DNA from: Candidatus Aminicenantes bacterium
GTDB taxonomy: Bacteria; Acidobacteriota; Aminicenantia; Aminicenantales; Aminicenantaceae
DNA: 64,000 bases
Reading direction: 5' to 3'
Assembly (NCBI GenBank): GCA_030603565.1
Contig: JAUVXM010000007.1
Location: 176 to 64,175 of the forward strand
In this document: one piece after another, positions 3,859 to 63,144 of the stretch
Position numbering within the stretch: the stretch's first letter is position 1
How the letters are laid out: each line of letters starts with the position of its first letter
Translations under genes and position numbers: made by a program
The notes under the pieces: generated by a model
What the model was told of the DNA's origin: nothing
What the model saw: only the letters and a program-made list of their open reading frames with translations
Database searches by the model: none

Positions 3859-3870
3859 GGAGTAAGGGCT

Positions 3871-4500: not shown

Positions 4501-4501
4501 T

Positions 4502-25339: not shown

Positions 25340-25397
25340 ATTATTCACGAGGCGAGCTGAAATTCGGGTGTGGCTTGGGCTCGCTTCAGATTTTTAG
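25335..25397. repeat. Repeat fragment: TIR-like CCTGAATTATTCACGAG followed by inverted family C module (GCGAGCTGAAATTCGGGTGTGGCTTGGGCTCGCTTCAGATTTTT)
   Basis: Reverse complement of the AAAAATCTGAAGCGAGC.CAAGCCACACCTGAATTTCA module seen at 17878-17917 and 35379-35417. Confidence 0.7.
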
Positions 25398-25399
25398 CC

Positions 25400-25489
25400 G
25401 GAGGGATGGCCGAGTGGCTGAAGGCGGCGGTCTTGAAAATCGCTTCACGTGCAAGCGTGACGGGGGTTCGAATCCCTCTCCCTCCGCCA
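25400..25489 (+). tRNA. tRNA-Ser (anticodon TGA)
   Basis: Acceptor GGAGGGA/TCCCTCC, anticodon loop CTTGAAA, long variable arm, T arm GGGGG-TTCGAAT-CCCTC, CCA encoded. Confidence 0.9.
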
Positions 25490-25538
25490 TTTTGAAAAAG
25501 AATCTAAAAATGTTAGAATACTAAAATACGAAATATGC

Positions 25539-25631
<93 letters not shown>

Positions 25632-41616: not shown

Positions 41617-42066
41617 TCAACCGTCTATTTCAAAGTCGCCAGTGGCTGAGCTTTTTAAAGTCGATTTATCATCCGGGCTGAATTTTTGTTCCAGGGCGAT
41701 AATTTTCACTAGAGAGCCAGGGTAATTTTGTCCTTTTTTCTCACCATAGGGATTAAACTGAACCCCTATTTGGTATTTATAACTTTTTCCCGGGTTTGCT
41801 GCTGACCATCTAACTCTTCCTTCAAGAGCCATAGGAACTCTTTCACCAGGAACTGATATTTTCATATGGATTTTTGTGTTTATTTTAAAACTTTTCTGGG
41901 AGACAAAGCGCATACCTCCTCTGCTGATGTCCAAAATCGGGCAGAACTCTTCTCCATATTTTCCATGAAGAGCGGAGAGAAATTTATCTAATTTATAGCT
42001 GGTAGTTGCTCCCGGAATTTCGAACCGGAAACAAGTTCTTCTTTCTATACTATTATTTGACATCAA
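41617..42066 (-). CDS. PilZ-domain protein (c-di-GMP receptor)
   Basis: RRTCFR (RxxxR) and DISRGGMRF (D/NxSxxG) motifs. Confidence 0.7.
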   Translation of the reverse strand: MMSNNSIERRTCFRFEIPGATTSYKLDKFLSALHGKYGEEFCPILDISRGGMRFVSQKSFKINTKIHMKISVPGERVPMALEGRVRWSAANPGKSYKYQIGVQFNPYGEKKGQNYPGSLVKIIALEQKFSPDDKSTLKSSATGDFEIDG

Positions 42067-42207: not shown

Positions 42208-43875
42208 TTATCTTAGGGTCCCTTCGTATTTTGCGGTTAACTGGCGTTTACGGACGTCTTCAGGGGTATAGGAGGGTAGGAGTACAGGTGAGATGCGGTC
42301 AGTTCTGATTCCAGCGGATTTAAGCTCTTTTTCATATCTGTTTATATGGTCGAGGGACAATTTGCTCAGCTTTACTGACTTAATATATGTAGAAGCGTAT
42401 TTTCCGGCTCTGCGTCCGAAAACATTATAATCTAATACGGAATTGCCCATCAAACGATTGCGTCCGTGAACTCCTCCCGACGCTTCCCCGGCAACATAGA
42501 GGCCGGGAATATTGGATTCGCATTTTTCATTGATCTCGATTCCTCCATTCTGATAATGAAGAGAGGGGAATACAAGCATTGGTTCTTTTGTTATATCGAT
42601 ATCATAACGGATAAACTGACGAAGCATAGCCGGGAATTGTTTTTTGATATATCCTTCTCCTTGAAGCATCTCGATTAAGGGGGAGTCTAACCAGACTCCG
42701 ACCCTGCCTTGGGGTGTTTTAATACCGTTTTTTCTTTCTAAACATTCTCTAATAAAGGCAGAACTTTCTACATCTCTGGGTTCACGTGGGAAAACAAATA
42801 GCTCTCCGTCTTTGTTAATCGGTTGCCCCCCGGCTCCTCTGATTTTTTCTGTGATCAGGAATCCTGCGATCTGTTCCGGGAAAACTGAACCGGTTGGATG
42901 ATATTGCACAGAATCCATATAAAGAAGCTTTCCACCGGTCCGGTAAGCTATAACCAACCCGTCTCCGGTTGCGCCGTAATGGTTGGTTGTGTCAAAACCT
43001 CTTATATGTAGCCGTCCGTATCCGCCAGTAGTGATAATAGTGGCTTTTGCTCTTACAGTAAAATATTCTTCAGTTTCAAGATTATAGAGCACTCCTCCCG
43101 CACACTTTCCTTGCTCATCCAGGATTAATTCAACTGTGGGCATGAATTCAAGTACATTTATTTTGTTAGGATGGTTTCTCACTTCATCCATGAGAGTCCG
43201 CATAATGATAGCACCGGTATAATCGCGGGACGAAAGCATTCTTTTTCGTGAAGTACCTCCTCCATGTAAAACTTGCAGAGAGGTGTCATCCAATTTATCC
43301 CACACGACTCCAAGTTCTTCCAACCAATTAGCAACTTCGGGGCCCTCTTCAGTAAGAGGTCTAACAAGCTCAGGTTTATTGTCAAAGTGACCGCCTCCGA
43401 TTACATCCAGATAGTGACGGGTAGGTGGGTCCTGCTTTGTAATGGCAGCCTGCATGCCTCCCTGGGACATCATGGAATTTGCATCTCCCAGGCGTAGTTT
43501 GGTCGAGATAAGGCATTTAGCTCCATTTTTAATTGCGGTAATTGCAGCAGCTGATCCACCGCCACCGCCTCCGATAATGAGGATGTCTGTTTCATAATCT
43601 GGCTTTGAAAGGTCGAAAGATTCCGGTTTGATTCGGGAATGGGATTCCAGAATGTCAGCGACTTCAGTTGTGAGCATCTCTCCTTTGTTAGGGCCGATAT
43701 TTATCTTTCGCCTAGATTCCTTTTTATAATCAGGATGAAACTTATTAAGCACTTCATCCCTTTCTTTAGCGCTCATAGGCGGAAAAACAGGTTTTTCTGA
43801 TTTTGCAAGCTCAAATCGCTTATTGCGGGTTTGAATAACTTTGTTGAGTGATTTGCTCATATAGTCTGGATACAT
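42208..43875 (-). CDS. Fumarate reductase/succinate dehydrogenase-family flavoprotein subunit (FrdA/SdhA-like, soluble; ~90-aa N-terminal extension)
   Basis: FAD dinucleotide fold DILIIGGGGGGSAAAITA, HYGATGDGLVIAYRTGG and VQYHPTG active-site regions typical of FrdA/SdhA/L-aspartate-oxidase flavoproteins. Confidence 0.8.
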   Translation of the reverse strand: MYPDYMSKSLNKVIQTRNKRFELAKSEKPVFPPMSAKERDEVLNKFHPDYKKESRRKINIGPNKGEMLTTEVADILESHSRIKPESFDLSKPDYETDILIIGGGGGGSAAAITAIKNGAKCLISTKLRLGDANSMMSQGGMQAAITKQDPPTRHYLDVIGGGHFDNKPELVRPLTEEGPEVANWLEELGVVWDKLDDTSLQVLHGGGTSRKRMLSSRDYTGAIIMRTLMDEVRNHPNKINVLEFMPTVELILDEQGKCAGGVLYNLETEEYFTVRAKATIITTGGYGRLHIRGFDTTNHYGATGDGLVIAYRTGGKLLYMDSVQYHPTGSVFPEQIAGFLITEKIRGAGGQPINKDGELFVFPREPRDVESSAFIRECLERKNGIKTPQGRVGVWLDSPLIEMLQGEGYIKKQFPAMLRQFIRYDIDITKEPMLVFPSLHYQNGGIEINEKCESNIPGLYVAGEASGGVHGRNRLMGNSVLDYNVFGRRAGKYASTYIKSVKLSKLSLDHINRYEKELKSAGIRTDRISPVLLPSYTPEDVRKRQLTAKYEGTLR

Positions 43876-43887
43876 CTGAGACTCCTT

Positions 43888-44571
43888 TTATTTTTCCATA
43901 TCTCTTGCATAATATTGTTTTTCGAGGTCTTCTTTATTTGCAGTCATTAAATCGTTGTATTCTTTATCGTATATATTTTTTTTGATTTCTTTGATCCTTA
44001 TATTGAGTTCTTTACTTTTAGGGGCTAGGTATTTACCGTAAAGTCTTTTAGCAAGAATACCGACATTGAATTGAACGATTTCCGCTGGACAGCGGATGGC
44101 ACAGAGCCCGCAGCAAAGACAATCAAAGGAGAGGTCCATTACTGCTTCGATGTCACCCCGCTTGGCAGCTTGAATGTAATCCATAACTTCCAAGTCTTGA
44201 GGACAAGCCTTAGTGCAGGAATTGCAGGCAACACATCTAAAGACTTCTGGATAGAGTTTCTGGATCGTGGCAACATTGGGTTCGATCTTATTGATATCAT
44301 AGATGGATTTATGAGCCGGGATTGCAGGAAGTTGAGAAAGCCACATATCTTTTTCGACCATAGTAGTGCAAGCAAGGCCTGTATAGATCTTATAATCCCC
44401 AGGAAGCCTGTATACTGTAGCACAGGCACCACAAAATCCTTCTCGGCAGCCAGCGCCTCTTTTTATTTGATAGCCGGCATATTCCATTGCTCCCATAATG
44501 GTTGCCTCAGCTGGGACTTTATAGCCTTTTCCCATAATAAAGACGTTCACAAAATTTTCTTTATTTGCCAT
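43888..44571 (-). CDS. Succinate dehydrogenase/fumarate reductase iron-sulfur subunit-like (2Fe-2S plus two 4Fe-4S/3Fe-4S motifs)
   Basis: CREGFCGACA...C (Cx4Cx2C...C plant-type 2Fe-2S), CVACNSCTKACP and CLCCGLCAIRCP cluster motifs. Confidence 0.8.
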   Translation of the reverse strand: MANKENFVNVFIMGKGYKVPAEATIMGAMEYAGYQIKRGAGCREGFCGACATVYRLPGDYKIYTGLACTTMVEKDMWLSQLPAIPAHKSIYDINKIEPNVATIQKLYPEVFRCVACNSCTKACPQDLEVMDYIQAAKRGDIEAVMDLSFDCLCCGLCAIRCPAEIVQFNVGILAKRLYGKYLAPKSKELNIRIKEIKKNIYDKEYNDLMTANKEDLEKQYYARDMEK

Positions 44572-44586
44572 CTTGATGTCTCCTTA

Positions 44587-45411
44587 TTAATATTCTTGCG
44601 GTAATGTTTTGAGTTCAGCCCAGGAATAAACTGGACCATCCTTGCAGATATAATGCTTGCCGATATTACATCTTCCACACTTGCCGATTCCGCATTTCAT
44701 CTTATTTTCAACTGTAGTATAGATCTGTTTATCCTTAAATCCCAGTTCTTCAAGAGCTTTAATTACAAATTTTATCATAATAGGGGGGCCGCAGGTGATC
44801 GAGATAGAATTGTCAGGGGAAGGTTTTTTGTCTGTTACATTTTGCGGGACAAATCCGACATACTCTTTCCAGTCTTTTTCCTCAACATCAACTGAAAGGT
44901 GTACATTCATTTTTTTATTAAGTTTTTCCAGTTCCTCTTTAAATACTAAGTCCTTTGAGGTTCTTGCTCCATAGATAAGAGTGAGTTTACCATAATCCTC
45001 TTTTTTTTTGAGAGCAGTATGCAGCACAGACCAGATCGGAGCTAAACCAATGCCGCCGCCAATAAAGATGAGGTTTTTCCCTTTCCAATTTTCAATTGGG
45101 AAATTGTTGCCATAAGGGCCTCTTATGCCGATGATTTCCCCGACTTCTGTTTCGTGTAAAGCGGAGGTCACTCTCCCCATTTTTAAGATACTGAACTGGA
45201 GGAAATCTTTTTCAAGCGGGGATGAGGATATGGAGATCATAGATTCGCCTTTTCCTAAAACGGAAAGCATGGCACATTGTCCGCATTGGTGGGAAAAACC
45301 GTTTTTTTCGACGAATTGAGTTCTAAATGTTTTAATAGGCCTTAAGCCTGAGACTTCTTCTTTTATCTTGATTATTTTTGCCAGTTTTGGAATGTATATG
45401 TTTTCATTCAT
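44587..45411 (-). CDS. NAD(P)H-binding FAD oxidoreductase with C-terminal 2Fe-2S (FlxA / sulfhydrogenase gamma / AsrB / PyrK-like)
   Basis: GGGIGLAP NAD-binding, FAD-binding beta-barrel, C-terminal CGIGKCGRCNIGKHYIC. Confidence 0.8.
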   Translation of the reverse strand: MNENIYIPKLAKIIKIKEEVSGLRPIKTFRTQFVEKNGFSHQCGQCAMLSVLGKGESMISISSSPLEKDFLQFSILKMGRVTSALHETEVGEIIGIRGPYGNNFPIENWKGKNLIFIGGGIGLAPIWSVLHTALKKKEDYGKLTLIYGARTSKDLVFKEELEKLNKKMNVHLSVDVEEKDWKEYVGFVPQNVTDKKPSPDNSISITCGPPIMIKFVIKALEELGFKDKQIYTTVENKMKCGIGKCGRCNIGKHYICKDGPVYSWAELKTLPQEY

Positions 45412-46492
45412 AATCTCTCACCTTATTCAGAATTTCTATTATATCTATTCCCATGGGGCATAAAGAAATACACCTTCCGCAGCCTGTACATAGGTAATCC
45501 TGATAATTTTCGACGTGATACTGAAACTTATGAAGAATTCTCTGGCGTAATCTTGAGGCTTTGTCCGGCCTGGGATTGTGTCCTGAGGAATGCATGGTAA
45601 AATCCGGGAACTGACATGTATCCCAGGTCCTGACTCTTTTTCCTTTGAGGGGTAGGGTAGAAGTGAGTTCATCGGTTATGTCAAAACAATAACAGGTGGG
45701 GCAGAGGTAAGTGCATATACCGCAGCGGATACAGCTCATGGCTTCTTCATCCCAGAAAGGAGATTCAAACATGTCTTTAAGTTTGTCTGGGATGTTTTTA
45801 ATATCTTTTATTTCTCTTTTAATCTTTTTTTCAGATTCCCTCTGGATTTTTTCCAATTCTTTTTTATCTTTTGGTGAGGCAGGCTTGAAAAGATTTTCGG
45901 CTGCTTTGATAAGCTTCTCTCCCTTCTTAGTCAAGGAATCGATATGATATTTGTCACCCATGTCAGTCATAAGAATATCCAGGCCCTCTTTAGAATGAGG
46001 TGAACCACCGACTGATAGACAGAAACAATTAGGCGAAGGAGGAGGGTTGCAGGTCAGGCCGACCAGTATTGTCTGGTTTCTTCTACTCCAGTAATAGGGG
46101 TCCTTAGGTTCCTCTCCAAAAACCTTGTCTGTAAGAGTTATTGCTTTAGCGTCACAGGGCCTGACACCGAAAATAACAGCCGGTTGCTCTTCAGGGAGAA
46201 CTTCTTTAATTTGAGGTTTTCCTTCTTTCGAAGTATTAAATTGAAGGAAGATCTCTCTCTGAGGATAAGTTATTTTTTTTGGAGCCAGAACTGTGTTTAA
46301 GTATTCCAAGTTAATCTTATCCGGGTTTTGGATAACTTCATAACTCCACAGATTTTCCTGCTTTTCCGGAGCATAAACTGTATAAGATTGCAGGTTTTTT
46401 ACCCATGCGGGGAATGATTTTTTTGTCAGTATCTTTTCCATGGTCTCACCTGATAAAATCTTCTGGGTCTTCATCTTTGAAACTAGAAACAA
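45404..46492 (-). CDS. Iron-sulfur subunit of the FlxB / sulfhydrogenase beta / AsrA type (two 4Fe-4S)
   Basis: VRPCD motif, CIRCGICTYLCPTCYCF and CTGCGRCISLCPMG ferredoxin motifs. Confidence 0.75.
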   Translation of the reverse strand: MFLVSKMKTQKILSGETMEKILTKKSFPAWVKNLQSYTVYAPEKQENLWSYEVIQNPDKINLEYLNTVLAPKKITYPQREIFLQFNTSKEGKPQIKEVLPEEQPAVIFGVRPCDAKAITLTDKVFGEEPKDPYYWSRRNQTILVGLTCNPPPSPNCFCLSVGGSPHSKEGLDILMTDMGDKYHIDSLTKKGEKLIKAAENLFKPASPKDKKELEKIQRESEKKIKREIKDIKNIPDKLKDMFESPFWDEEAMSCIRCGICTYLCPTCYCFDITDELTSTLPLKGKRVRTWDTCQFPDFTMHSSGHNPRPDKASRLRQRILHKFQYHVENYQDYLCTGCGRCISLCPMGIDIIEILNKVRDYE

Positions 46493-47477
46493 GGGAAGGC
46501 TGCTCAGGATCTAAGCCGGCTTTATAGTCAAAAAGCTCTTTAGCAACTTTTTCCAGTTTTTTATTTAATAACCTTAAGGGGATGTCAACAGGACAAACTC
46601 GTTCACATTCGCTGCAATCTATACAACGGCCAGCTAAATGCATGGCTCTGACCAGATGATAGCCGAAGTTTTCTGAGGATTCCGGTGATTTTTCTATCCA
46701 TTTGATTTTTTGAGACTTTTCTTCTGCAGTAGTGTCGGCCGTGATCGCAAGGTTTATGCTGTCCACCACACACTCATCACAATAACACATTGGACAAACT
46801 GATCGGCAGGCATAACAACGAATACATTTACTTAATTGTTGTTGCCAGAAATCCCACTTTTTTTCCTGAGATAATGATTCAATTTGTTCCAGGGATTTAA
46901 ATGGTTCTTTGGGTGAGCGGTTGTTTCTATCTCCCCAAAATACATCGGAGATCACTGGGAAACTGGAAGTGCATTCCAGACATCTTTCAGCCAGGATTTC
47001 TTTGAGAGGAATTTTTATAGTTTTTTCTTTGGTTGAAATCACTATATTTTTTCTTTGGTCGAATTCGATTTTTTCCGGCTCTTCTCCTTTTAGTTTTTTG
47101 AAGATCTTCTTCTCGTCCAGGACTCCGAGATCTTCGCAGGAAAGCCCTATAATATAAACATCTTCCCGGGTTATAAATTTTTCCTGGAGTAATACATTTA
47201 TGGCCCGGCTGTCACAGCCTTTCACGAAAATACCAACTGGCCGTATATCCGGTTCTTTTTCTCTGGCTTTTTTTCTTTTTTCATCTAAGAGGAACTTAAC
47301 AAGATTTTGAAAACAAGTGGGATCCCAGATAAGTTTATCAATGTCTTCCGGCTTTTTCACAAAGGTGGGTGCGGCCATTAAGGCATTTGAGCTTTTAGCA
47401 TAACCTATGATATATTTTACTTTTCCTTCTTCCAGGATATTCTTAGCTTCTTTTTTTATTTCTTCCAGGTTCACCAT
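46446..47477 (-). CDS. 4Fe-4S dicluster protein, FlxC-like (FrhB/FdhB-family N-terminal domain)
   Basis: CIRCYACRSVCPMCYCDEC and CIDCSECERVCPVDIP; N-terminal region resembles the F420-hydrogenase-beta-like flavin/FeS scaffold. Confidence 0.55.
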   Translation of the reverse strand: MVNLEEIKKEAKNILEEGKVKYIIGYAKSSNALMAAPTFVKKPEDIDKLIWDPTCFQNLVKFLLDEKRKKAREKEPDIRPVGIFVKGCDSRAINVLLQEKFITREDVYIIGLSCEDLGVLDEKKIFKKLKGEEPEKIEFDQRKNIVISTKEKTIKIPLKEILAERCLECTSSFPVISDVFWGDRNNRSPKEPFKSLEQIESLSQEKKWDFWQQQLSKCIRCYACRSVCPMCYCDECVVDSINLAITADTTAEEKSQKIKWIEKSPESSENFGYHLVRAMHLAGRCIDCSECERVCPVDIPLRLLNKKLEKVAKELFDYKAGLDPEQPSLVSSFKDEDPEDFIR

Positions 47478-47899
47478 TATTTTTCTCTCCTCAGCTTTTT
47501 TTGGGGGCCGAGTGGTTTAAGCTCCTGAACAAAGTCTTGGATGATCTTTGTGTATTTTTTTCCTTCTGCGGCTGAGACCCAGGACATTTTAAATCTTTGT
47601 GGTTCCAGGCCGATATATTCAATAAGTTCTTTGACTAAGGCTATTCTTCGCCGGGCATAGAAGTTTCCTTTAATATAGTGGCAGTCTCCGGGATGACAGC
47701 CGGATACAAGTACTCCGTCAGCTCCTTTCTGGAATGCATTGAAGATATATAAGGGGGATACACTACCTGAGCACATAACCGTGATCGGAACTACATTGGG
47801 GGGATACTTCATACGGGAAACTCCTGCAAGGTCGCTTCCGGCTGATGAGCACCATTTGCACAGAAAAGCAATGATTTTGGGTTCGAATTCTTCAGCCAT
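47477..47899 (-). CDS. mvhD: MvhD/FlxD-like protein (methyl-viologen-reducing hydrogenase delta subunit family, 2Fe-2S)
   Basis: KIIAFLCKWCSSAGSD...VMCSGSVSP...SGCHPGDCHY matches the MvhD cysteine pattern. Confidence 0.85.
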   Translation of the reverse strand: MAEEFEPKIIAFLCKWCSSAGSDLAGVSRMKYPPNVVPITVMCSGSVSPLYIFNAFQKGADGVLVSGCHPGDCHYIKGNFYARRRIALVKELIEYIGLEPQRFKMSWVSAAEGKKYTKIIQDFVQELKPLGPQKKLRREK

Positions 47900-47901
47900 A
47901 T

Positions 47902-49857
47902 TCAGCCTCCCACACTTGCATCTATCATTTCGTAAATTTGTCCTGGGGTGATATTTTTAACTTCTATGGCGGCCCTTAAACAGGTAGCTGAACAGGTACC
48001 GCATCCTTCACAAAGGACTTCATTGACTTCGGCTTTATTGTCTTTAAGGCTTAAAGCATCATAAGGGCAAACATCAACGCACATTCCACACCCTGTACAG
48101 AGATTTAAACTTACTTCAGCTACTATGGGGGAGTGGAATAGATGGTCCTGAGATAATATTATTATTGCTTTGGCGGCAGCCCCGCTGGCTTGAGCTACTG
48201 CTTCTGGTATATCCTTGGGGGCCTGGGCTGCTCCGGCAAAAAATAATCCTGAAGTGACACTTTCTACTGGTCTAAGTTTCGGGTGAGCTTCAGATAGAAA
48301 GCCGTCTTTATCTAAAGAGACCTTCAGTTTTTTAGCAAATTCCTCTGCTCCTTTAGTCGGCCGCATAGCTGTAGCCAGGACAACCATGTCAGCATTGATC
48401 TCGATATCTTTTCCAGCTAATGTGTCAGCTCCCCAGACTGTGATCTTTCCGTTTTCTTCAAATATCTTTGAAACTTTTCCTCTTAGGTATACTACTCCAT
48501 CCTCTTCTTTTGCTCTCTGAACGAATTCCTCATAGTCTTTTCCTCCGGAACGGATATCAATGTAAAAGATATAGGCCTGTCCATCAGGGACATGGTGTTT
48601 GTACAACATAGCGTGTTTTGCAGTATACATGCAGCATATTTTGGAACAGTAAGCGCAATGAAGCTCAGGATCCCTCGACCCTACACATTGAATAAAGACT
48701 ACTTCTTTGGGTACTTTGTGGTCAGATGGCCTGAGCACTTCACCCATGGTAGGACCTGAAGCCGATAATAATCTTTCGAATTGCAGCCCGTCCAGGACAT
48801 CCGCATATTTTCCATATCCATATTCTTTCATATTCTCTTTATCGTAGAGGTCATAACCTGTGGCCAGCACTATGGAACCAATTTCTTCTTCAATAATCTC
48901 TGGTTTCATATCATAATCAATAGCTCCAGGCTCACATACATCTATACATTTGCCGCATGCTATAGGAAGTAAGCCCGGGCAGTTAACTATATCCAAGGTA
49001 TAGGTGGCGGGGATAGCCTGAGGAAAAGGAATGTAAATAGCTTTTCTTCCTGTCAATCCTATATCAAACTCATTAGGAACAACTATAGGACAGACGTCCA
49101 CGCATTTGTCACAAAGGGTACATTTATCGGGATCAACATAAGTAGGCTTTTTAAGGATCTTGGCCTTAAAATTTCCTACATAACCAGTGATTTCCTGGAC
49201 TTCGCTGTAAGTCAATAATTTGATCTTTGGGTGTTTTGAAACATCTACCATTTTTGGTGTCAGGATACATTGGGAGCAGTCTAAAGTAGGGAATGTCTCA
49301 GAAAGCTGGATCATATGGCCGCCGATCGAAGGAGATTTTTCAACCAATATAACCTCATAACCACTATTGGCCATATCCAGAGCGGCTTGAATACCTGCGA
49401 TCCCGCCTCCGATGACCAGGCCTCGGCGGGTTACAGGAATACTGATAGGTTCTAAGGATTTATTTTTTACCACGTGTTCTACTGTGCTGCGGGTGATCTT
49501 TATAGCTTTTTCTGTTGCCTTTAACTTATCTTTGTGAACCCAGCTGCATTGCTCTCTAATATTAGCGATCTCACACTGAAATTCGTTTATACCCCCAGCT
49601 TTAGCACAATTACGGAAAGTGGTCTCATGCAGGTTAGGGGAACAACAGGCTACGACAACACTGTCAAGGTTGTGTTCTTTAATGGAATTTTCAATAAGTT
49701 TTTGTCCGGGATCCGAACACATATAGACATAGTCTTCTGAGTGGGTAACGTCTGAGTGTTTCATGAGTTCTTCCGCAACATTTTTTACATCTACTGTGCC
49801 TGCGATATTTATGCCGCAGTGGCAGACAAAAACACCAGTCCGTTTTTTCATTTTCAC
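47902..49857 (-). CDS. hdrA: Heterodisulfide reductase subunit A-like flavoprotein (HdrA; FAD plus multiple 4Fe-4S)
   Basis: FAD fold GLVIGGGIAGIQAALDMANSGYEVILVEK, N-terminal Cys cluster VCHCGINIAG, several CxxCxxCxxxCP ferredoxin motifs, ~650 aa. Confidence 0.9.
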   Translation of the reverse strand: MKMKKRTGVFVCHCGINIAGTVDVKNVAEELMKHSDVTHSEDYVYMCSDPGQKLIENSIKEHNLDSVVVACCSPNLHETTFRNCAKAGGINEFQCEIANIREQCSWVHKDKLKATEKAIKITRSTVEHVVKNKSLEPISIPVTRRGLVIGGGIAGIQAALDMANSGYEVILVEKSPSIGGHMIQLSETFPTLDCSQCILTPKMVDVSKHPKIKLLTYSEVQEITGYVGNFKAKILKKPTYVDPDKCTLCDKCVDVCPIVVPNEFDIGLTGRKAIYIPFPQAIPATYTLDIVNCPGLLPIACGKCIDVCEPGAIDYDMKPEIIEEEIGSIVLATGYDLYDKENMKEYGYGKYADVLDGLQFERLLSASGPTMGEVLRPSDHKVPKEVVFIQCVGSRDPELHCAYCSKICCMYTAKHAMLYKHHVPDGQAYIFYIDIRSGGKDYEEFVQRAKEEDGVVYLRGKVSKIFEENGKITVWGADTLAGKDIEINADMVVLATAMRPTKGAEEFAKKLKVSLDKDGFLSEAHPKLRPVESVTSGLFFAGAAQAPKDIPEAVAQASGAAAKAIIILSQDHLFHSPIVAEVSLNLCTGCGMCVDVCPYDALSLKDNKAEVNEVLCEGCGTCSATCLRAAIEVKNITPGQIYEMIDASVGG

Positions 49858-50414
49858 TTTCCTTTTTTTAGAGTTTCGAGGCCGTATTCGTATCCTTTAT
49901 CAAAGGCTTTTAAGTTTAATTCCAGGAAACGGTCGGGTACTAGACCGGGCACTCCTTTTTTCATAACTTCCGAGGTAGTGATTTTTGTTATAGCAGTAAA
50001 GAAGCCCATCATCACCAGGTTGGCGATGATCCGGTTCCCGAGTTCTTCGGCAAAACGAGTAGAAGGAACCGAATAAGATTTGATCTTTCCGCGGGGAGGT
50101 TTGGGTTTTACTAAATCCTGGTCGATGATGAGGAGGCCGTCATCTTTTAAGTCTGATTCATATTTATCGTATGCCTCCTGAGACATGGATACCAGGATTT
50201 CTGGAATGGTGATGTAGGGATAGAGGACTCGGTCGTCGGAAACAATAAGCTGAGAGCTGCAGGCGCTGCCTCTTGCTTCCGGGCCGAAGCTCTGGGTCAT
50301 AGTGGCAAATTTGTTTCCATAGAGCGAAAGAGCTTTGCCAGCAATAAGGGCACAGCGGATGATCCCTTGGCCTCCAAAACCGGAAAATCTAATCTCAGTC
50401 ATTGTTATCTCCAT
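49854..50414 (-). CDS. 2-oxoacid:ferredoxin oxidoreductase gamma subunit
   Basis: FSGFGGQGIIRCALIAGKA... typical POR/KOR/VOR gamma sequence. Confidence 0.85.
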   Translation of the reverse strand: MEITMTEIRFSGFGGQGIIRCALIAGKALSLYGNKFATMTQSFGPEARGSACSSQLIVSDDRVLYPYITIPEILVSMSQEAYDKYESDLKDDGLLIIDQDLVKPKPPRGKIKSYSVPSTRFAEELGNRIIANLVMMGFFTAITKITTSEVMKKGVPGLVPDRFLELNLKAFDKGYEYGLETLKKGK

Positions 50415-51267
50415 AAAGTTGGTATTTATCTCCTAGTACTGAAGAGAGATGTTTATTCATGGCATCCAGGAAAGTCGGTTTTTCCTTATCGACAAACTTT
50501 CCTACAATAAGTTTTCCCTGGTAGCTTATATCAAGTGTTCTTGTGTCTGCCCCATGCTGTATTTCTGACATGTCGTAATAATATTTAAGAAGGTTCAGGC
50601 CATCCCCAAGCCGGTTCCTCCGGGCATATAATGTAACACAAGGAGTTATGACTTCAATAAAAGAAAATCCACGTTTGTTTAAAGCTTCTTGGATAGATTT
50701 TGTGACACGCCTCAGATGAAGAGCTGTCCAGCGGGCAACATAGGTGGCACCGGCTGCTTCCGTAATATAGGGAAGGTTAAAGGCATTTTCAAAATTTCCA
50801 TAAGGAGCAGTGGATGCATTGGCATCTTTCGGTGTGGTTGCGGCAACTTGGCCTCCAGTCATAGCATAATTGAAGTTATTGACACAGATCACAACCAGAT
50901 CCATGTTCCTTCTTGCTGCATGGATCAGGTGGTTGCCGCCAATTCCGGAAATATCTCCATCACCGCTAAATACTACTACTTTTGTATCCGGTTTTGCCAG
51001 TTTCAGACCGGTTGCAAAGGGGATGGCACGTCCGTGAGTGGTGTGGAAGGAATCCAGTTTTGTGTAGCCGGCAACTCTTCCTGTACAACCTATACCGGAT
51101 ACAATCGCGATCTTATCAAGGTCGTATTTTTCTTTTCGTAAAGCTTCTGCAAATGATGTTACTACTGTTCCTATTCCGCAACCGGGGCACCAAATGTGCG
51201 GCATCCTGTCCATTCTTAAGATTTCTTCTATTGGGTTTTTTTCAGTATTTTGATCTTCTTTATTCAT
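50395..51267 (-). CDS. 2-oxoacid:ferredoxin oxidoreductase beta subunit (TPP-binding)
   Basis: WCPGCGIG...GDGD TPP-binding motif region (FSGDGDISGIGGNHL). Confidence 0.9.
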   Translation of the reverse strand: MNKEDQNTEKNPIEEILRMDRMPHIWCPGCGIGTVVTSFAEALRKEKYDLDKIAIVSGIGCTGRVAGYTKLDSFHTTHGRAIPFATGLKLAKPDTKVVVFSGDGDISGIGGNHLIHAARRNMDLVVICVNNFNYAMTGGQVAATTPKDANASTAPYGNFENAFNLPYITEAAGATYVARWTALHLRRVTKSIQEALNKRGFSFIEVITPCVTLYARRNRLGDGLNLLKYYYDMSEIQHGADTRTLDISYQGKLIVGKFVDKEKPTFLDAMNKHLSSVLGDKYQLYGDNND

Positions 51268-52429
51268 TTGGCTGCCTCCTTAATGGCGTTCAGGATATCT
51301 TCGGGGTTGTGGACCCAGCCGCCGTAATGGGGGACGGAAACAACCTTACATTTATCACCCACCACCCGCTCGGCTTCTAATACGACCTGTCCGGCATTTA
51401 TCTCAGGGAATACGATTGCTTTTACTTTACCAGCTAATTCTTTAATCCGTTTTTCAGGAAAGGGCCAGACTGTTTTAAGTTGCATTGTGCCGACTTTTAT
51501 TCCGGTTTTTTTTGCCTCTTGAACTGCTTTTATAGATACTCTCGAAGTTATTCCGTAAGACATGACTAAAATTTCGGCATTGTCAATATCAGTTTCTTTT
51601 AAATGGATGATTTTATCGGCATTGTCTTTGATTTTGTCGATAAGATGGCTTACACAAGTAGCCTGGCATTCAGCATTGAGAAGAGGGTATCCTCTTTCAT
51701 CCCGTGTCAGGCCGGTGGTATGAAAACGGTACCCGTCCCCTACCTTGACCATAAATGGGATGCCGTCCGTGTCATTTTTATAAGGCAAGTATTTGTTTTT
51801 AGGGCCTTTATACCATTTTCTTTCCACTAATTCGATTTCTTCTGCCGGAGGGATGACTACTTTTTCATGCATATGACCTATACATTCATCCGTCATAACA
51901 AAAACCGGGACCCGGTAAGTCTCAGACAGGTTAAATGCCTCAATGGTCAGGTCAAAACATTCCTGAGGCGAATCAGGGGAAAGAGCGATTATCTCATAAT
52001 CGCCGTGAGAGCCCCATCTGGCCTGCATCATATCCTGTTGTCCGGTCAGGGTAGGAAGTCCGGTCGAAGGACCTCCTCTCTGGACATTTGCAATAACAAG
52101 GGGAGTCTCCATCATGCAGGCTAGACCGATATTTTCCATCATGAGGGAAAAGCCTGGTCCGGAAGTAACTGTCATGGCTTTTTTGCCCCCCCACACAGCA
52201 CCAATTAGAGAAGCAATTGACCCCAGCTCATCCTCCATTTGAATAAAAACACCGCCTACATAAGGAATCCGTTCGGAAAACCTTTCCGCAGTTTCTGTTG
52301 AGGGAGTAATAGGATAGCCTCCGAAATAACGGCATCCAGCGGCAAGCCCTCCCTCAGCAAGGGCATAATCCCCATCCATAAAATGGGAACCTGTTAAAAC
52401 TCCTTTAGGATCTGCTTTCGACTTTTTCA
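51264..52429 (-). CDS. 2-oxoacid:ferredoxin oxidoreductase alpha subunit; probable GTG start at 52429 (the ORF-track ATG at 52490 would overlap the delta subunit by 86 nt)
   Basis: LTGSHFMDGDYALAEGGLAAGCRYFGGYPITPSTE matches the conserved KorA/PorA N-terminus. GTG-AAA-AAG (VKKSK...) overlaps the last 8 codons of the delta gene. Confidence 0.85.
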
Positions 52430-52680
52430 CCTTGGTCCTCCTCATTCTTAATGGTAACAAATATGGCAAATTCTGGACAAATTGTCTCACAGAGCTGACA
52501 GTAGCAGCATTCGTCCTCGTTTTTTACTATGGGTGGATGATATCCTTTAACATTAAATTCTTCGGATAGCTCCAGGACATCCCGCGGACAATACTCTACA
52601 CAAAATCCACATCCTTTGCACTGGTCCTTCGAGATGTGGATCTTGCCTTTTGTTGGTTTCAAATTTCCAAAATAAGTCAT
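52405..52680 (-). CDS. 2-oxoacid:ferredoxin oxidoreductase delta subunit (2x4Fe-4S ferredoxin)
   Basis: CKGCGFCVEYCP and CCYCQLCETICP. Confidence 0.85.
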   Translation of the reverse strand: MTYFGNLKPTKGKIHISKDQCKGCGFCVEYCPRDVLELSEEFNVKGYHPPIVKNEDECCYCQLCETICPEFAIFVTIKNEEDQGEKVESRS

Positions 52681-52687
52681 TTGTACC

Positions 52688-53566
52688 TCAAATTAATCCT
52701 TTTTCTTTAAGGATTGCTGTTGGGTCTATATAATGAAGATCTAACCTTAAACTATCCTGGGGACAGCCTAAGGAAATTGCCAATAATTGAGAAAAATAAA
52801 GAATTGGTATATTTTTGAATTCAGGAAACTTCTGTTGAGTTTTTTTCTGGCGCTGGTCAAGATTAAAAGCGCAAAGAGGGCAGCTTACTATAACGACTTC
52901 AGCTCCTTGTTTTATAGCTGATGAGAGGATCTGGTTGGTACGGTCGGCGATGATTTCTGGTTTATCGACTGTTTGATAAGCGCCGCAGCATTCGACTTTA
53001 TGAGGGAAATCTATGGCTTCGGCTCCAAGTGTAGTCATGAGTTCATCCATGATCATCGGATTTTCCACATCGTCGAATCCGATCTCCCGGGGACGAACAA
53101 GGTAACATCCATAATAGCTTGCCACTTTTAAGCCTTTGAGAGATTTAACAGTTTTTTTAGCGATGTTCTCAAATTTAATCTCATTTTTTAGTATTTCGAG
53201 AAGATGAACGACATCAACATCTCCTTCGTAATCGATATCTTCCCGGTACATCAAGTCATTGATGATGTCCAGGTCTTCAGGATTTGATCTAACTCGTTCA
53301 TTGCTTCTTTTTAGGGTGTTGTAACACATCGCACAGAGGGTCATAAGTTTATCCGAGCCGGCTTCTTTAGCTCTTATAAGGTTCCTGACTGGGGCGACAT
53401 GATGGATCAAGTCATCGCTGGTAAGGGAAAAAACGGTTCCGCAACAATTCCATCTGCGGATCTCTTCAACTTCCACATCAAGGCTTTTTAAGGAACATAA
53501 AGCTGAATCTTCAAAATTTTTGGCGTGATTTTTTAGAGTACACCCGGGAAAATAGCTTAGTTTCAT
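52688..53566 (-). CDS. hdrB: Heterodisulfide reductase subunit B-like (two CCG domains)
   Basis: MKLSYFPGCTLKN...NCCGT and a second CxnCCGx-type cysteine-rich domain (KVECCGAYQ). Confidence 0.88.
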   Translation of the reverse strand: MKLSYFPGCTLKNHAKNFEDSALCSLKSLDVEVEEIRRWNCCGTVFSLTSDDLIHHVAPVRNLIRAKEAGSDKLMTLCAMCYNTLKRSNERVRSNPEDLDIINDLMYREDIDYEGDVDVVHLLEILKNEIKFENIAKKTVKSLKGLKVASYYGCYLVRPREIGFDDVENPMIMDELMTTLGAEAIDFPHKVECCGAYQTVDKPEIIADRTNQILSSAIKQGAEVVIVSCPLCAFNLDQRQKKTQQKFPEFKNIPILYFSQLLAISLGCPQDSLRLDLHYIDPTAILKEKGLI

Positions 53567-53614
53567 AATTATGATTCCTTCTTAAATTTGGATTATGGCT
53601 GATTAACAACATAT

Positions 53615-54022
53615 TTATGATGTGAATTTTCTAAAATTGCTGATTAATGCTATTGGAGGCACATCTCCTCTCTCAGAATCAGAAAGTTCTTCTACGTTTA
53701 CATGGTCTTCTCGTTTACGCAGTAATATCTGCCTGACTGCTTCTATAGCTTCTGCAATGTTTATGCCCTTGGGGCAGCGGACATTGCAGGTCATGCACGA
53801 TGCGCAGATCCAGATGGAGTTTGATTTCAATAATTCTTCCTTTAAGCCAAGTTGAGCAAAGCGGATGATCTGGTTGGGCAGTATATCCATTTGAGATACA
53901 GCAGGACAGCCTGCGGAACATTTTCCACACTGATAGCAGGCGAGAAGGTTTTGGCCGCTTAATTCTTCGACTTTGGCTACGAAAGGACTTCTGATCTTAT
54001 GGCGGGAGATATTAGTTCGCAT
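53615..54022 (-). CDS. hdrC: Heterodisulfide reductase subunit C-like (2x4Fe-4S)
   Basis: CYQCGKCSAGCP and CASCMTCNVRCP. Confidence 0.85.
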   Translation of the reverse strand: MRTNISRHKIRSPFVAKVEELSGQNLLACYQCGKCSAGCPAVSQMDILPNQIIRFAQLGLKEELLKSNSIWICASCMTCNVRCPKGINIAEAIEAVRQILLRKREDHVNVEELSDSERGDVPPIALISNFRKFTS

Positions 54023-54177
54023 ATAAAATATCCTTTTTTTCTAAAGATAATTTTAGCAACATTAAAATATTCATATATTCCATAATAAAAAGACAATAGT
54101 ACAGCATAATTGAATATTACTGTCAAGGATAGGTTCAATTTTTTTTGTGAATATATGCGCAAAAAGAATCAAACCTA

Positions 54178-56331
54178 TTACCTACTGCCTATTGGCTTTA
54201 ATGTTCCCCAGGCTAGAAACAGAAGAGTGAAGGAATTGATAAGAAAAAGGTATTTTGTCAGCATTTGGAGGCCGACTAGAGGGATAAGTACTGAAGAGAC
54301 AGCCAATGCTCCCAGAAAAGAGCCGAGCAGGTCTAATCCATAGCCGAGTCCGTAGTTAGAGCTTTTTTGCAGAAAAAGCCGGTTGGATATAACAAATAAA
54401 TGGCCGCATGCAGCTCCGAATAACAAGAGGAAGACAAAAAATAGAAACAGAGGGATCTGCTGTTGTAAGGCAATGAGGAGTAAAAAAATGAATATCATAA
54501 ATACGAATTGAATAAACAGTAGATCAGAGAGGCGAGGATTATTTCTTCTTGTCCCGCTGAAGGCTCCCAGGCAAAGCCCCAACATAAAAAAGGAAAAAAG
54601 CAATGCCAGTCCCAGGTAAATATAACCGTGAAAGGTTTGAAAAGCCAATATTAAAATGATTTCAATAGTTATGCTTGATAACCCCATAACAAAAAGAGGA
54701 ATCAAATAGAATGATATACGAGAACGTTTCACCCCGGCTGTGGTTAAAAAAAGAAGGAACAGGATAAGGGGGAGGTCGAGAAGCCAGAATTTGCCTGACT
54801 GGGATAGAAAAGCGAGCAATGAGGTTTCCAGCCCCTTGAACTGAGTAGACCACAGCACAGAGTTGAAAAAATAACTTACAGGCTTTAGGTCATGGTTTAT
54901 TTCTCCTTCACCTTCCAATATCTTTTGTTTTAAAGAGTCTTTTCTAAGGGGCGAGAGGCGAGAAAATAAGAGTTGAGGATTGATGTATACATTATTAAGC
55001 TCGAGTTTTTCTATCTCCTGGGAAATTTCTTTATATTCTAAGGTTATTGGCTGTGATGAGGCTAAAAAGATATTTGCAGCTCCAGGAACTATTTCAACAA
55101 AGTGAAAAGTATTTTTTAAGGTCCGGTAAAGAGAGGATAGATAATTCTGAAGTTCCGGGCTGATGTAATTTTCAGCAGATGATGTGCGGAAAGAAAAAAT
55201 TCCTTTTGTTGACAATTTTGCTTTTACCGTTAAAAAAAATTCTTCTGTGTAAAAGCGGTTTATCTGAGCTGTTACCGGGTCCGGCAGATTAAGGATGATG
55301 GCATCATAGTTTTTTTGAGTGTTGTTAAGAAATAACCTACCGTCTTTAAAATAAGTATTTATACGCGGGTTCTGGAATATGCGGCTTTCCTCTGCTGGAA
55401 GGAATTTCTTTGAAAACCGGATGATCCCCGGGTCAAGTTCAACGTAATCTATGCTTGAGTTGGGATACTTTAATATTTCTTTAAGGCTTCCTCCGGCTCC
55501 TCCCCCGATAAGGAGTACATTTTTTGCTTCAGGATTTTGTAATAGGGCGAAATGAACCGATTCTTCAGAAGAAGCTTTATCTGGGTTAGAATAGATCAGA
55601 AAACAATTGTTGTAGAGTGATATTTGCTCCCTATCTTTTAAGACCTGAAGTTTTCCGTAAGGGGTATCCTTACTTGCTATCAGGTTAAAAGGAGACCAGA
55701 ATTTTTTCTGGGTCGGGAAATCCAAGGCCCAGAACAGAGAAAACAGGATTAGCGAGAAAACAAGCAGTAGGGGATTACGTTTTTGCCTGAATATTAAAAA
55801 GATAATTAGAGCACTTAGGCCGGCTACGAGAATTGATACTTGCCAGTTGGAAAATAAAGGGATCAGGATAAAATAGACCGTTGATCCGGCTATGGCTGAA
55901 CCGAGTGATTCTATCATATACACTCGGGAAAGATTGCCTTTGAGGTAGTAAGTATTAAAGACAAATAAAATCCCAAGGGGGAAGCATATAAAAAAGGAAA
56001 ATCCCATAGAAAACAGGAGTATAGATGTTAAACCGGTGATTTCCCCCGGAAGGGTTTTGAGGGCGAAGCGTGAAAGCCTTAATCCTATCAGGCAGATAGG
56101 GAATATTATAATTACCAGGAAGTACAGCCGGACAAATTTTGTTAGGCTGAATTTTATTCTGGCGGCGGCAAGGCTTCCCAGGCCCGTCCATAGAAGCCAA
56201 AAGGAGAGGAGGATTCCAATAGTAATTTCATTTCCATAAAAATGGACTGAAAACTCCCGGATTAAAACTATCTGGAAAGATAAGGCTAAGAATCCTAAGA
56301 CAAAAGCAGGAAGATATTTTTTTAAATCCAT
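54178..56331 (-). CDS. Fused multi-TM (MFS-like) / spermidine-synthase-family aminopropyltransferase-like membrane protein
   Basis: ~12 predicted TM helices flanking a Rossmann methyltransferase-like core VLLIGGGAGGSLKEILKYPNSSIDYVELDP typical of spermidine synthases. Confidence 0.7.
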   Translation of the reverse strand: MDLKKYLPAFVLGFLALSFQIVLIREFSVHFYGNEITIGILLSFWLLWTGLGSLAAARIKFSLTKFVRLYFLVIIIFPICLIGLRLSRFALKTLPGEITGLTSILLFSMGFSFFICFPLGILFVFNTYYLKGNLSRVYMIESLGSAIAGSTVYFILIPLFSNWQVSILVAGLSALIIFLIFRQKRNPLLLVFSLILFSLFWALDFPTQKKFWSPFNLIASKDTPYGKLQVLKDREQISLYNNCFLIYSNPDKASSEESVHFALLQNPEAKNVLLIGGGAGGSLKEILKYPNSSIDYVELDPGIIRFSKKFLPAEESRIFQNPRINTYFKDGRLFLNNTQKNYDAIILNLPDPVTAQINRFYTEEFFLTVKAKLSTKGIFSFRTSSAENYISPELQNYLSSLYRTLKNTFHFVEIVPGAANIFLASSQPITLEYKEISQEIEKLELNNVYINPQLLFSRLSPLRKDSLKQKILEGEGEINHDLKPVSYFFNSVLWSTQFKGLETSLLAFLSQSGKFWLLDLPLILFLLFLTTAGVKRSRISFYLIPLFVMGLSSITIEIILILAFQTFHGYIYLGLALLFSFFMLGLCLGAFSGTRRNNPRLSDLLFIQFVFMIFIFLLLIALQQQIPLFLFFVFLLLFGAACGHLFVISNRLFLQKSSNYGLGYGLDLLGSFLGALAVSSVLIPLVGLQMLTKYLFLINSFTLLFLAWGTLKPIGSR

Positions 56332-57443: not shown

Positions 57444-57472
57444 TTGAATTTTAATGCCATTGATAATATGGG

Positions 57473-61397: not shown

Positions 61398-61408
61398 AGC
61401 TTGTTTAC

Positions 61409-63073: not shown

Positions 63074-63144
63074 GATTGCTTTTCCTTAAATCAGAACAAG
63101 CCTAACATATTCATAACAACAGGTATAAATGTTCAAATCATATT

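Follow-up and report, generated by a model that had tools for sequence, protein, structure and literature searches.

Methanogens combine a thiol:fumarate reductase (TfrAB), Mvh-HdrABC and a four-subunit 2-oxoacid:ferredoxin oxidoreductase (Kor) into a reductive branch that leads to 2-oxoglutarate. Rubin-Blum et al. 2019 (PMC6315080) found korABCD and tfrAB mixed in with flxABCD-hdrABC in symbionts of tubeworms and in a cultured bacterium, Thioflavicoccus mobilis, in the order frdB frdA hdrC hdrB korD korA korB korC hdrA flxD flxC flxB flxA aclB aclA idh (Table S1 of that study), and the products were proposed to form a complex that bifurcates electrons to 2-oxoglutarate:ferredoxin oxidoreductase (OGOR) and fumarate reductase, directly or via ferredoxin and a thiol (Supplemental Note 3 of that study). 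Mitchell et al. 2024 (PMC11636981) presented the same cluster order, again with frdBA next to it, and likewise proposed bifurcation, and a 2026 survey (PMC13147460) restates the model of electron flow from NADH to fumarate and ferredoxin, and on to 2-oxoglutarate; the hypothesis has thus been published for one and the same gene set together with co-expression data (PMC6315080, PMC11636981, PMC13147460). The order hdrCBA-flxDCBA is also found in Bilophila wadsworthia (PMC12125255), and a report on Pseudoclostridium thermosuccinogenes (PMC7282089) describes a "succinate operon" with fumarase, Flx-Hdr and FrdAB as a proposed bifurcating fumarate reductase. Here we describe a putative operon of thirteen genes in a Candidatus Aminicenantes bacterium (GCA_030603565.1), on the minus strand at positions 42208-54022 of a 64,000-nt stretch of DNA (contig JAUVXM010000007.1, forward-strand positions 176-64,175; hereafter the window). 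The operon is a new phylum-level occurrence of this known gene set, and our literature search retrieved no paper mentioning the cluster in Aminicenantes. With a probability of about 0.6, we interpret the thirteen genes as encoding a cytoplasmic NADH-dependent, ferredoxin-reducing bifurcating fumarate reductase, co-expressed with a ferredoxin-consuming 2-oxoglutarate synthase.

A conserved thirteen-gene cluster in Aminicenantes

The listing of open reading frames (ORFs) shows an unbroken run of thirteen genes, all on the minus strand, from position 54022 down to 42208, in the order hdrC-hdrB-korD-korA-korB-korG-hdrA-flxD(mvhD)-flxC-flxB-flxA-frdB-frdA. A preliminary description of this DNA had counted fourteen genes; the listing holds thirteen, and the formula given in that description also adds up to thirteen. 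Its statement that the genes are co-directional, with overlaps or gaps below 50 nt, is borne out: once the starts of korA, flxB and korG are revised from homologue N-termini and Shine-Dalgarno sites, neighbouring genes either overlap by 1-26 nt or lie 2-48 nt apart, which amounts to tight translational coupling. The revised korA begins with GTG at 52430, behind AGGAGG, so that its N-terminus fits the homologues (MKK..ADPKGVLTG); flxB begins with ATG at 46441, and korG probably starts at 50402.

The gene order is strongly conserved within the phylum. Relatives of FrdA were confirmed in 333 stretches of a species-representative genome collection, and the best 80 loci were examined for genomic context; all relatives above 78% identity came from metagenome-assembled genomes (MAGs) of Candidatus Aminicenantes. 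The full order hdrB-korDABG-hdrA-flxDCBA-frdBA was found in 39 of the 50 informative Aminicenantes species loci (those of the best 80 with at least 9.3 kb of upstream flank), and 28 of the 30 loci with shorter flanks fit it as far as their sequence reaches. The placement of korDABG between hdrB and hdrA, for which a gene-neighbourhood search had been suggested, is therefore recurrent, and the arrangement as a whole is far beyond chance.

Eleven of the informative loci depart from the full order. Ten lack flxCBA, eight of which keep mvhD while two (L052 and L074) do not, and in one (L030) flxBA-frdBA is detached from hdr-kor. Such flx-less natural variants show that the core does not depend on NADH input. 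Their MvhD shares 63% identity with the hydrogenase-linked MvhD of an Asgard archaeon (see below) as compared to 54% with the FlxD of the window, which hints that the MvhD adaptor may co-vary with the input module. The loci recorded without flxCBA are L026, L033, L044, L048, L052, L054, L056, L070, L071, L074, L075 and L079, the last of which has additional genes 5' of hdrC, for an HdrA-like fragment, an MvhD and an FrhB-like protein.

From the spacing of the genes and their synteny we infer a single transcript. The 155-nt AT-rich spacer 5' of hdrC, in which a TTGACA without mismatch occurs along with a weak −10-like TACTAT, is likely to be the promoter region of the operon. A consensus promoter and terminator scan gave counts that were not above those of shuffled controls and did not pick up this TTGACA region, and folding of the 141-nt spacer between frdA and the following pilZ gene revealed no terminator-like fold (z = −0.6); beyond this spacer, the PilZ gene carries a promoter-like site of its own. 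The single operon proposed earlier is thus supported by spacing and synteny and not by an enrichment of promoter or terminator signals over shuffled sequence. An Rfam scan found no RNA element within or beside the cluster.

As the preliminary description had it, the system appears to be entirely soluble and free of several familiar partners. A hydropathy scan found no transmembrane segment in any of the thirteen products, which agrees with the claimed absence of a membrane anchor. No match to hydrogenase large subunit or formate dehydrogenase domains was found in the cluster ORFs or among the other window ORFs of at least 150 aa, this being the size from which ORFs outside the cluster entered the domain search. 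There is likewise no DsrC (~105 aa) among the cluster ORFs; outside the cluster, ORFs below 150 aa were not searched.

Table 1. Genes of the Aminicenantes cluster and its upstream spacer, in order of transcription (window coordinates, revised junctions)
Feature	Position	Strand	Length	Characteristics and Pfam matches	Junction to next gene
spacer 5' of hdrC	54023..54177	-	155 nt	intergenic, AT-rich; perfect TTGACA, weak −10-like TACTAT	
hdrC	53615..54022	-	135 aa	two CxxCxxCxxxCP [4Fe-4S] motifs; Fer4_8/Fer4_17	gap 48 nt
hdrB	52688..53566	-	292 aa	two complete CCG motifs; CCG x2	gap 7 nt
korD	52405..52680	-	91 aa	2x[4Fe-4S] ferredoxin-like delta subunit	overlap 26 nt
korA	51264..52430	-	388 aa	alpha subunit	overlap 4 nt
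korB	50395..51267	-	290 aa	beta subunit binding thiamine pyrophosphate (TPP); TPP_enzyme_C	overlap 8-20 nt
korG	49854..50414	-	182-186 aa	gamma subunit; POR	overlap 4 nt or gap 2 nt
hdrA	47902..49857	-	651 aa	FAD plus N-terminal, inserted and C-terminal Fe-S domains	gap 2 nt
flxD/mvhD	47477..47899	-	140 aa	[2Fe-2S] adaptor; FlpD (175.9 bits)	overlap 1 nt
flxC	46446..47477	-	343 aa	FrhB_FdhB_C-like domain and 2x[4Fe-4S]; FrhB_FdhB_C, Fer4_7	gap 4 nt
flxB	45404..46441	-	345 aa	AsrA/HydB-like Fe-S protein; Fer4_22 (114 bits)	overlap 8 nt
flxA	44587..45411	-	274 aa	NAD(P)H/FAD-binding, C-terminal [2Fe-2S]; NAD_binding_1, DHODB_Fe-S_bind	gap 15 nt
frdB-like	43888..44571	-	227 aa	[2Fe-2S] motif CxxxxCxxC...C and two CxxCxxCxxxCP motifs	gap 12 nt
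frdA-like	42208..43875	-	555 aa	soluble flavoprotein; FAD_binding_2 (246 bits)	

Hdr, Flx and Kor subunits

Product identities were derived from Pfam and NCBIfam profile searches of the cluster ORFs, with sequence matches to the Protein Data Bank (PDB) for HdrA, HdrB and KorA. The profile hidden Markov model check of each ORF backs all the gene labels at the domain level, and the domain searches and PDB matches show that all seven Flx-Hdr components are present with complete cofactor sites. Residues 5-646 of HdrA align with residues 4-647 of HdrA in a methanogen crystal structure (5odc_A; 737 bits), and the protein scores 839 and 648 bits against the NCBIfam HdrA2 and HdrA models, under their methanogen-specific cut-offs; it is, by its sequence, a full-length flavoprotein of the bifurcating type. 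HdrB matches methanogen HdrB (7bkb_B/5odc_B) over its full length, its CCG motifs reading C9..C41C42..C78xxC81 and C153..C193C194..C229xxC232 in the translation, and it also gives a full-length match (165.6 bits) to the MFR SdhE "anchor" model NF042965. HdrC is 55% identical to the HdrC of the Asgard cluster, its best NCBIfam match being TIGR03290 (80.7 bits against a cut-off of 160). On the input side, FlxA has AsrB/HydG-like and FlxB ShyB/HydB/AsrA-like NCBIfam matches, those of FlxB under the cut-offs, and FlxC matches no NCBIfam family.

All four subunit types of a 2-oxoacid:ferredoxin oxidoreductase were found by Pfam (POR_N/PFOR_II, TPP_enzyme_C, POR and Fer4). KorA passes the 2-oxoacid:acceptor oxidoreductase alpha model NF006412 (549 bits against 411), and its best PDB match is a generic 2-keto acid enzyme (1yd7_A, 363 bits), another being the alpha subunit of 2-oxoglutarate synthase (8ys5_A, 281 bits). 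For the other three subunits the scores are lower than the respective cut-offs: the best match of KorB is the 2-oxoglutarate:ferredoxin oxidoreductase beta model PRK09628 (240 bits against 364) and that of KorD is OGOR_delta NF042987 (72.5 against 125), while KorG scores 191.8 bits against NF006323 (cut-off 235).

A soluble FrdAB, probably of the fumarate-reducing type

In the FrdA/SdhA family, non-covalently bound FAD favours fumarate reduction, and the histidine that binds FAD covalently is normally needed for efficient succinate oxidation. Alignments to E. coli FrdA and SdhA place an asparagine of the window FrdA at the position of the covalent-FAD histidine of "SHTVSAQGG". Every substrate-binding and catalytic residue is kept: alignments to 2b76_A and 1nek_A show that the protein retains E. 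coli FrdA His232, Thr244/Glu245, Arg248, Arg287 (the proton donor), His355 and Arg390, and the corresponding H326, T342, R367, H440 and R474 are invariant in an alignment of 60 sequences. The AlphaFold (AF2) model built from this alignment, which includes archaeal and gammaproteobacterial relatives, reached a pLDDT of 84.5 and matches FrdA/SdhA folds, most closely E. coli FrdA (1kf6_A, TM 0.68); a first run on 28 near-identical Aminicenantes sequences gave a pLDDT of 34.6 and was discarded.

The best NCBIfam match of FrdA is TfrA (NF004900; 331.5 bits against a cut-off of 718), with the last ~120 profile positions unmatched, and Pfam finds no C-terminal Succ_DH_flav_C (PF02910). The protein bears a conserved N-terminal extension of ~93 aa, in which H47-P48-D49, G61 and N63 are invariant across three clades of Bacteria and Archaea; its extreme C-terminus (residues 520-555) is invariant within Aminicenantes. 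The preliminary description had left open that the "Frd" pair might turn out to be like NadB (L-aspartate oxidase). This identity is rejected, since the NadB model TIGR00551 scores 250.3 bits against a cut-off of 452.75 and an Fe-S subunit partner is invariably present.

That partner, the FrdB-like protein, adjoins FrdA in every related locus that was examined. It matches Fer2 (weakly) and Fer4 families in Pfam and the N-terminal part of TfrB in NCBIfam (E = 5.5e-9), and is only distantly similar in sequence to canonical FrdB (2bs2_B, E = 2.6e-4). Neither Pfam nor NCBIfam detects a CCG domain in it; the CCG domains sit on the separate HdrB.

Archaeal and gammaproteobacterial relatives

Among representatives of 50%-identity clusters, the FrdA proteins that share the N-terminal extension form a small subfamily, with two main branches outside Aminicenantes. 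The first, at 57-58% identity, is archaeal and includes Bathyarchaeota and Asgard archaea. Here the bathyarchaeotal locus L087 reads korDABG-hdrA-mvhD-hdrC-hdrB-frdB-frdA and the Asgard locus L086 korDABG-hdrA-mvhD-mvhG-mvhA-hycI-hdrC-hdrB-frdB-frdA. Both clusters hold the same ten core genes as the window, but with korDABG first and hdrCB after mvhD, and they differ in their input module: L087 has none, L086 has an Mvh [NiFe] hydrogenase and the window has FlxCBA. Since the hydrogenase subunits MvhG and MvhA of L086 directly follow mvhD, in the very slot that flxCBA occupies in the window, input modules appear to be swapped while the Frd and Kor ends stay in place. The ten core window proteins are 45-62% identical to their counterparts in L086 and 38-57% to those in L087, and the similar cross-domain identity of all components (45-62%) suggests that the ten core genes may have been transferred between the domains as a unit. 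In the source annotation of the L086 genome (Asgardarchaeia GCA_052584985.1) hdrA is uncalled; tblastn places it, at full length and with 62% identity to the window HdrA, at 2620-4566 of that locus. Another frdBA locus of this genome (L090) comes with Hdr-linked input genes of a different kind.

Further loci vary the theme. In L089, kor and an HdrA::MvhD fusion are divergent from hdrB-frdBA; L090 and L091 carry hdrCBA, a flavoprotein of ~1000 aa, mvhD and an FrhB-like protein, followed by frdBA; in L088, frdBA is followed by an HdrA::MvhD fusion; and L085 consists of malic enzyme, fumarase and frdBA. As judged from these gene orders, the Hdr core stays constant, flanked by Frd on one side and in many cases by Kor on the opposite side, and the input module right after mvhD varies.

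The second branch (45% identity) is gammaproteobacterial, including Ridgeia/Endoriftia symbionts, Sedimenticola and Thiorhodococcus, and has frdB-frdA-nuoF-like triplets, which suggest a simple three-subunit soluble fumarate reductase with NADH input. The fact that FrdBA relatives adjoin fumarase and malic enzyme (L085) or, in Gammaproteobacteria, a NuoF-like NADH-binding subunit supports fumarate as the substrate and NADH as a usual donor. We considered whether the gammaproteobacterial FrdA relatives (P0123/P0356) are the published Hdr-Flx-linked tfrA, and rejected this since their context is instead frdB-frdA-nuoF-like, in the Ridgeia symbiont "rTCA cluster 2" (rTCA, reductive tricarboxylic acid cycle). 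The triplets, which occur in the Ridgeia symbiont and marine Gammaproteobacteria (L081-L084), are thus distinct from the Hdr-Flx-linked Frd; that of the Ridgeia symbiont lies beside mdh, citrate synthase, a two-subunit korAB and por. An FrdA-like protein of 42% identity that likewise bears the N-terminal extension is annotated in Prochlorococcus sp. MIT 1201 (WP_413360575.1, P0125/P0285, on a 2.59-Mb contig), which is unexpected in a cyanobacterium.

Proposed electron flow and its alternatives

The mechanism we favour would run as follows. NADH would deliver electrons to FlxA (FAD, [2Fe-2S]), from where they would pass through the [4Fe-4S] clusters of FlxB and FlxC and the [2Fe-2S] cluster of FlxD/MvhD to HdrA, whose FAD would split the electron pair. 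The high-potential branch would lead through HdrC, the two non-cubane clusters of HdrB and the three clusters of FrdB to the non-covalent FAD of FrdA, at which fumarate would be reduced to succinate, whereas the low-potential branch would lead through the ferredoxin domains of HdrA to ferredoxin, or to KorD directly, so that KorDABG could use the low-potential electrons to carboxylate succinyl-CoA to 2-oxoglutarate. The overall reaction would be 2 NADH + fumarate + Fd(ox) → 2 NAD+ + succinate + Fd(red), where Fd is ferredoxin, and one bifurcation turnover would supply exactly the two low-potential electrons needed for one Kor turnover (1:1). Gene content, cofactor motifs, catalytic residues and synteny are seen directly in the sequences, and from them we infer the direction, each step of the electron flow and the physical association of the subunits.

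With NADH at −320 mV as the donor and acceptors that average about −210 to −235 mV, standard potentials give a calculated energy release of roughly 33-42 kJ for each forward reaction. In Aminicenantes the operon most likely serves a reductive branch from fumarate via succinate and succinyl-CoA to 2-oxoglutarate, with fumarate taking up electrons and the product going into the synthesis of glutamate; a complete, autotrophic rTCA cycle is probably not its role.

Proteins of the HdrB type are known to partner the iron-sulfur subunits of Frd and Sdh as points of electron entry. This partnership (seen here in the match to the SdhE model and in the TfrB fusion), as well as the lack of a CCG domain in FrdB that could oxidise a thiol, leads us to favour a direct wiring of HdrB to FrdB. 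The alternative is a thiol relay as in methanogens, in which Flx-HdrABC would bifurcate to ferredoxin and a diffusible disulfide (of a low-molecular-weight thiol or a DsrC-like protein) and FrdAB would act as a thiol:fumarate reductase that turns the thiol back into the disulfide, making a single complex unnecessary. The Tfr/Hdr/Kor logic of methanogens is an established precedent for such a relay, HdrB keeps both complete CCG motifs of the disulfide site, and TfrA is the best NCBIfam match of FrdA. Yet the CCG domain is, to our knowledge, the only thiol-oxidising module of TfrB, and with a FrdB-like protein that has none, FrdAB is left with no recognisable thiol site; the cluster also holds no DsrC-like gene, and we know of no bacteria that make the coenzyme M/coenzyme B (CoM/CoB) heterodisulfide. 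The relay, which was one of the options offered by Rubin-Blum et al. (PMC6315080), therefore seems to us very improbable for this operon.

The same proteins could also run in the opposite direction, as a confurcating system of amino-acid or glutamate fermentation, with Kor oxidising 2-oxoglutarate to succinyl-CoA and reduced ferredoxin, and the Hdr core joining these electrons with those from succinate oxidation (FrdAB being a succinate dehydrogenase) and passing them through Flx to NAD+; the result would be an oxidative path from 2-oxoglutarate to fumarate that needs no quinones. The stoichiometry balances 1:1 here as well, Aminicenantes are described as fermentative heterotrophs (work cited in PMC7509429), a TfrA-type enzyme has been drawn oxidatively for Culexarchaeia (PMC9723716), and the window ORFs of at least 150 aa include peptidases and glycine-cleavage genes and no autotrophy genes. 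We nevertheless hold this direction to be quite unlikely: it is calculated to be endergonic by ~40 kJ under standard conditions and could proceed only at extreme metabolite ratios, the histidine for covalent FAD is missing from FrdA, and the Mvh hydrogenase that replaces Flx in L086 suits H2 uptake better than H2 evolution from succinate.

Finally, the operon may encode enzymes that are co-transcribed and otherwise separate, namely an ordinary catabolic 2-oxoacid:ferredoxin oxidoreductase, a Flx-Hdr module that balances NADH and ferredoxin by way of some disulfide, and a soluble fumarate reductase or L-aspartate oxidase that works on its own. This fits the NCBIfam scores of FrdA, KorB, KorG and KorD, which fall short of the family-specific cut-offs, the detached flxBA-frdBA of L030, and the occurrence of FrdBA without Kor in several archaea and Gammaproteobacteria. 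It fits poorly with the interleaving of kor with hdr, which is kept in Aminicenantes and (according to the literature) in Gammaproteobacteria, and as adjacency in Archaea, and with the unit transfer suggested by the similar 45-62% cross-domain identity of all components; as to L-aspartate oxidase, NadB has no Fe-S partner and its model scores 250 bits against 452.75. We regard full independence of the enzymes as improbable.

Several observations weigh against the bifurcating fumarate reductase that we prefer. About 20% of the informative Aminicenantes loci are without flxCBA, two of them also without mvhD; the Kor beta, gamma and delta subunits stay below the NCBIfam cut-offs, which makes the specificity for 2-oxoglutarate tentative; the intact disulfide-reducing site of HdrB could mean that a thiol/disulfide carrier is still involved; and no succinyl-CoA synthetase, fumarase or citrate lyase was found among the searched ORFs (at least 150 aa) of the 64-kb window. 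In addition, a full-text literature search found no biochemical or structural evidence for the complex in any organism.

A bolder version of the bifurcating scheme would have Kor, HdrABC-MvhD and FrdAB form one physical super-complex that delivers both electron streams with no free ferredoxin or thiol carriers. It would represent an ancient ten-gene unit that moved between Archaea and Bacteria (Asgard, Bathyarchaeia, Aminicenantes and Gammaproteobacteria), with plug-in inputs behind MvhD: FlxCBA for NADH, MvhGA for H2, and others in trans. We offer this as a tentative idea that is rather unlikely to be correct.

If the bifurcating model is true, free energy that is otherwise "wasted" in NADH-dependent fumarate reduction would yield low-potential electrons for 2-oxoglutarate synthesis, a compact answer to two hard steps of the reductive TCA cycle that requires no membrane, quinone or ATP. 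So far, a bifurcating fumarate reductase has been a postulate, for tubeworm symbionts and for a succinate-producing Clostridium. What is new here is that nearly all Aminicenantes conserve the operon, that some of them naturally lack flx, and that archaea have counterparts, including one with hydrogenase input; the variants with swapped inputs in Bathyarchaeota and Asgard archaea are natural material for probing the mechanism. Aminicenantes are an abundant uncultured group of anoxic sediments and digesters, and the occurrence of the operon in them broadens its ecological relevance.

Genomic surroundings

The rest of the window is of a housekeeping nature, with aminoacyl-tRNA synthetases, glycine cleavage, MetH, transketolase and proteins of cyclic di-GMP (c-di-GMP) signalling. 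Among the window ORFs of at least 150 aa, neither citrate lyase nor any other gene of the TCA cycle was found. The region 5' of the operon (54178-58405) encodes a polytopic membrane protein of 717 aa that bears a spermidine-synthase domain, together with a radical SAM and a DUF362 protein; the membrane protein is kept 5' of hdrC in related loci (e.g. L026, L048 and L071). Genes for c-di-GMP signalling are dense in the window (41617-42066, 28094-29155 and 60495-63915) and encode three GGDEF proteins, one GAF-linked and two with receiver domains, a PAS/GAF sensor and the PilZ protein directly 3' of the operon. Most related loci keep the PilZ gene in synteny, although its strand varies. The region 133-2465, in which a tRNA-Arg(CCG) gene (2390-2465) is adjoined by genes for an excisionase-like HTH_17 protein and a member of the phage integrase family, may be the edge of an integrated element. 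Two paralogues of ~1070 aa with Sortilin/Vps10-type repeats (7912-11103 and 13037-16264) flank an FAD-linked oxidase gene. The regions 21709-21976 and 24065-25631 together hold a large-type bacterial signal recognition particle (SRP) RNA (172 bits) and a seryl-tRNA synthetase gene followed immediately by two tRNA-Ser genes, with UGA and GCU anticodons.

Comparison with known systems

The preliminary description had read the cluster as a soluble bifurcating or confurcating system that connects NAD(P)H, ferredoxin and fumarate, and knew of no described system of this composition. The functional reading remains the best supported one and matches published proposals; its undescribed status does not hold. 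An identical arrangement occurs in known organisms, since the same set is present in tubeworm symbionts and T. mobilis, and the features singled out as unusual have each been reported: korDABG inside the hdr genes in Ca. Endoriftia, the Escarpia symbiont and T. mobilis (PMC6315080), the D-C-B-A order of flx after hdrA as a normal published arrangement, e.g. in B. wadsworthia (PMC12125255), and a two-subunit FrdAB beside Flx-Hdr in P. thermosuccinogenes (PMC7282089).

The closest counterpart is the cluster of the tubeworm symbionts (Ca. Endoriftia and the Escarpia laminata symbiont) and T. mobilis, which has the same thirteen gene types, co-directional and in identical order from hdrC to flxA, an adjacent two-subunit soluble Frd, and the same proposed bifurcation from NADH to fumarate and ferredoxin/OGOR; this likeness is one of gene content and order. 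The two differ in the place of frdBA, which is 3' of flxA in the window but 5' of hdrC in the symbiont cluster, and in their setting: the latter lies amid rTCA genes, whereas the window is without aclAB, idh, mdh, acn, rubrerythrin and pntAB (ORFs of at least 150 aa). The hosts also differ, being anaerobic, heterotroph-like Aminicenantes on the one hand and sulfur-oxidising autotrophs on the other.

FlxABCD-HdrABC of Desulfovibrio and Bilophila has the same seven subunits with the same domains, and there, too, the order hdrCBA-flxDCBA occurs (PMC12125255; see also Ramos et al. 2015), but its proposed acceptor is DsrC and its partner an alcohol dehydrogenase, whereas the Aminicenantes cluster has neither DsrC nor adh and has kor inserted and frdBA appended. 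In P. thermosuccinogenes (PMC7282089, which cites a 2019 preprint by Koendjbiharie & van Kranenburg), Flx-Hdr is directly followed by a two-subunit soluble Frd and succinate formation is proposed to be coupled to ferredoxin reduction; that operon has fumarase and no kor, while the window has kor and, among its ORFs of at least 150 aa, no fumarase. Membrane-bound quinol:fumarate and succinate:quinone reductases are set apart by their anchor subunits, covalent-FAD histidine and Succ_DH_flav_C domain, all three of which are missing from the Frd of the window. Methanogen TfrAB, Mvh-HdrABC and Kor provide the same three functions as the window, with TfrA as the best family match of FrdA, at about half the cut-off score; methanogen TfrB, however, is a fusion of an FrdB-like and an HdrB-like part, whereas in Aminicenantes the FrdB-like protein and HdrB are separate and the input would be NADH via Flx.

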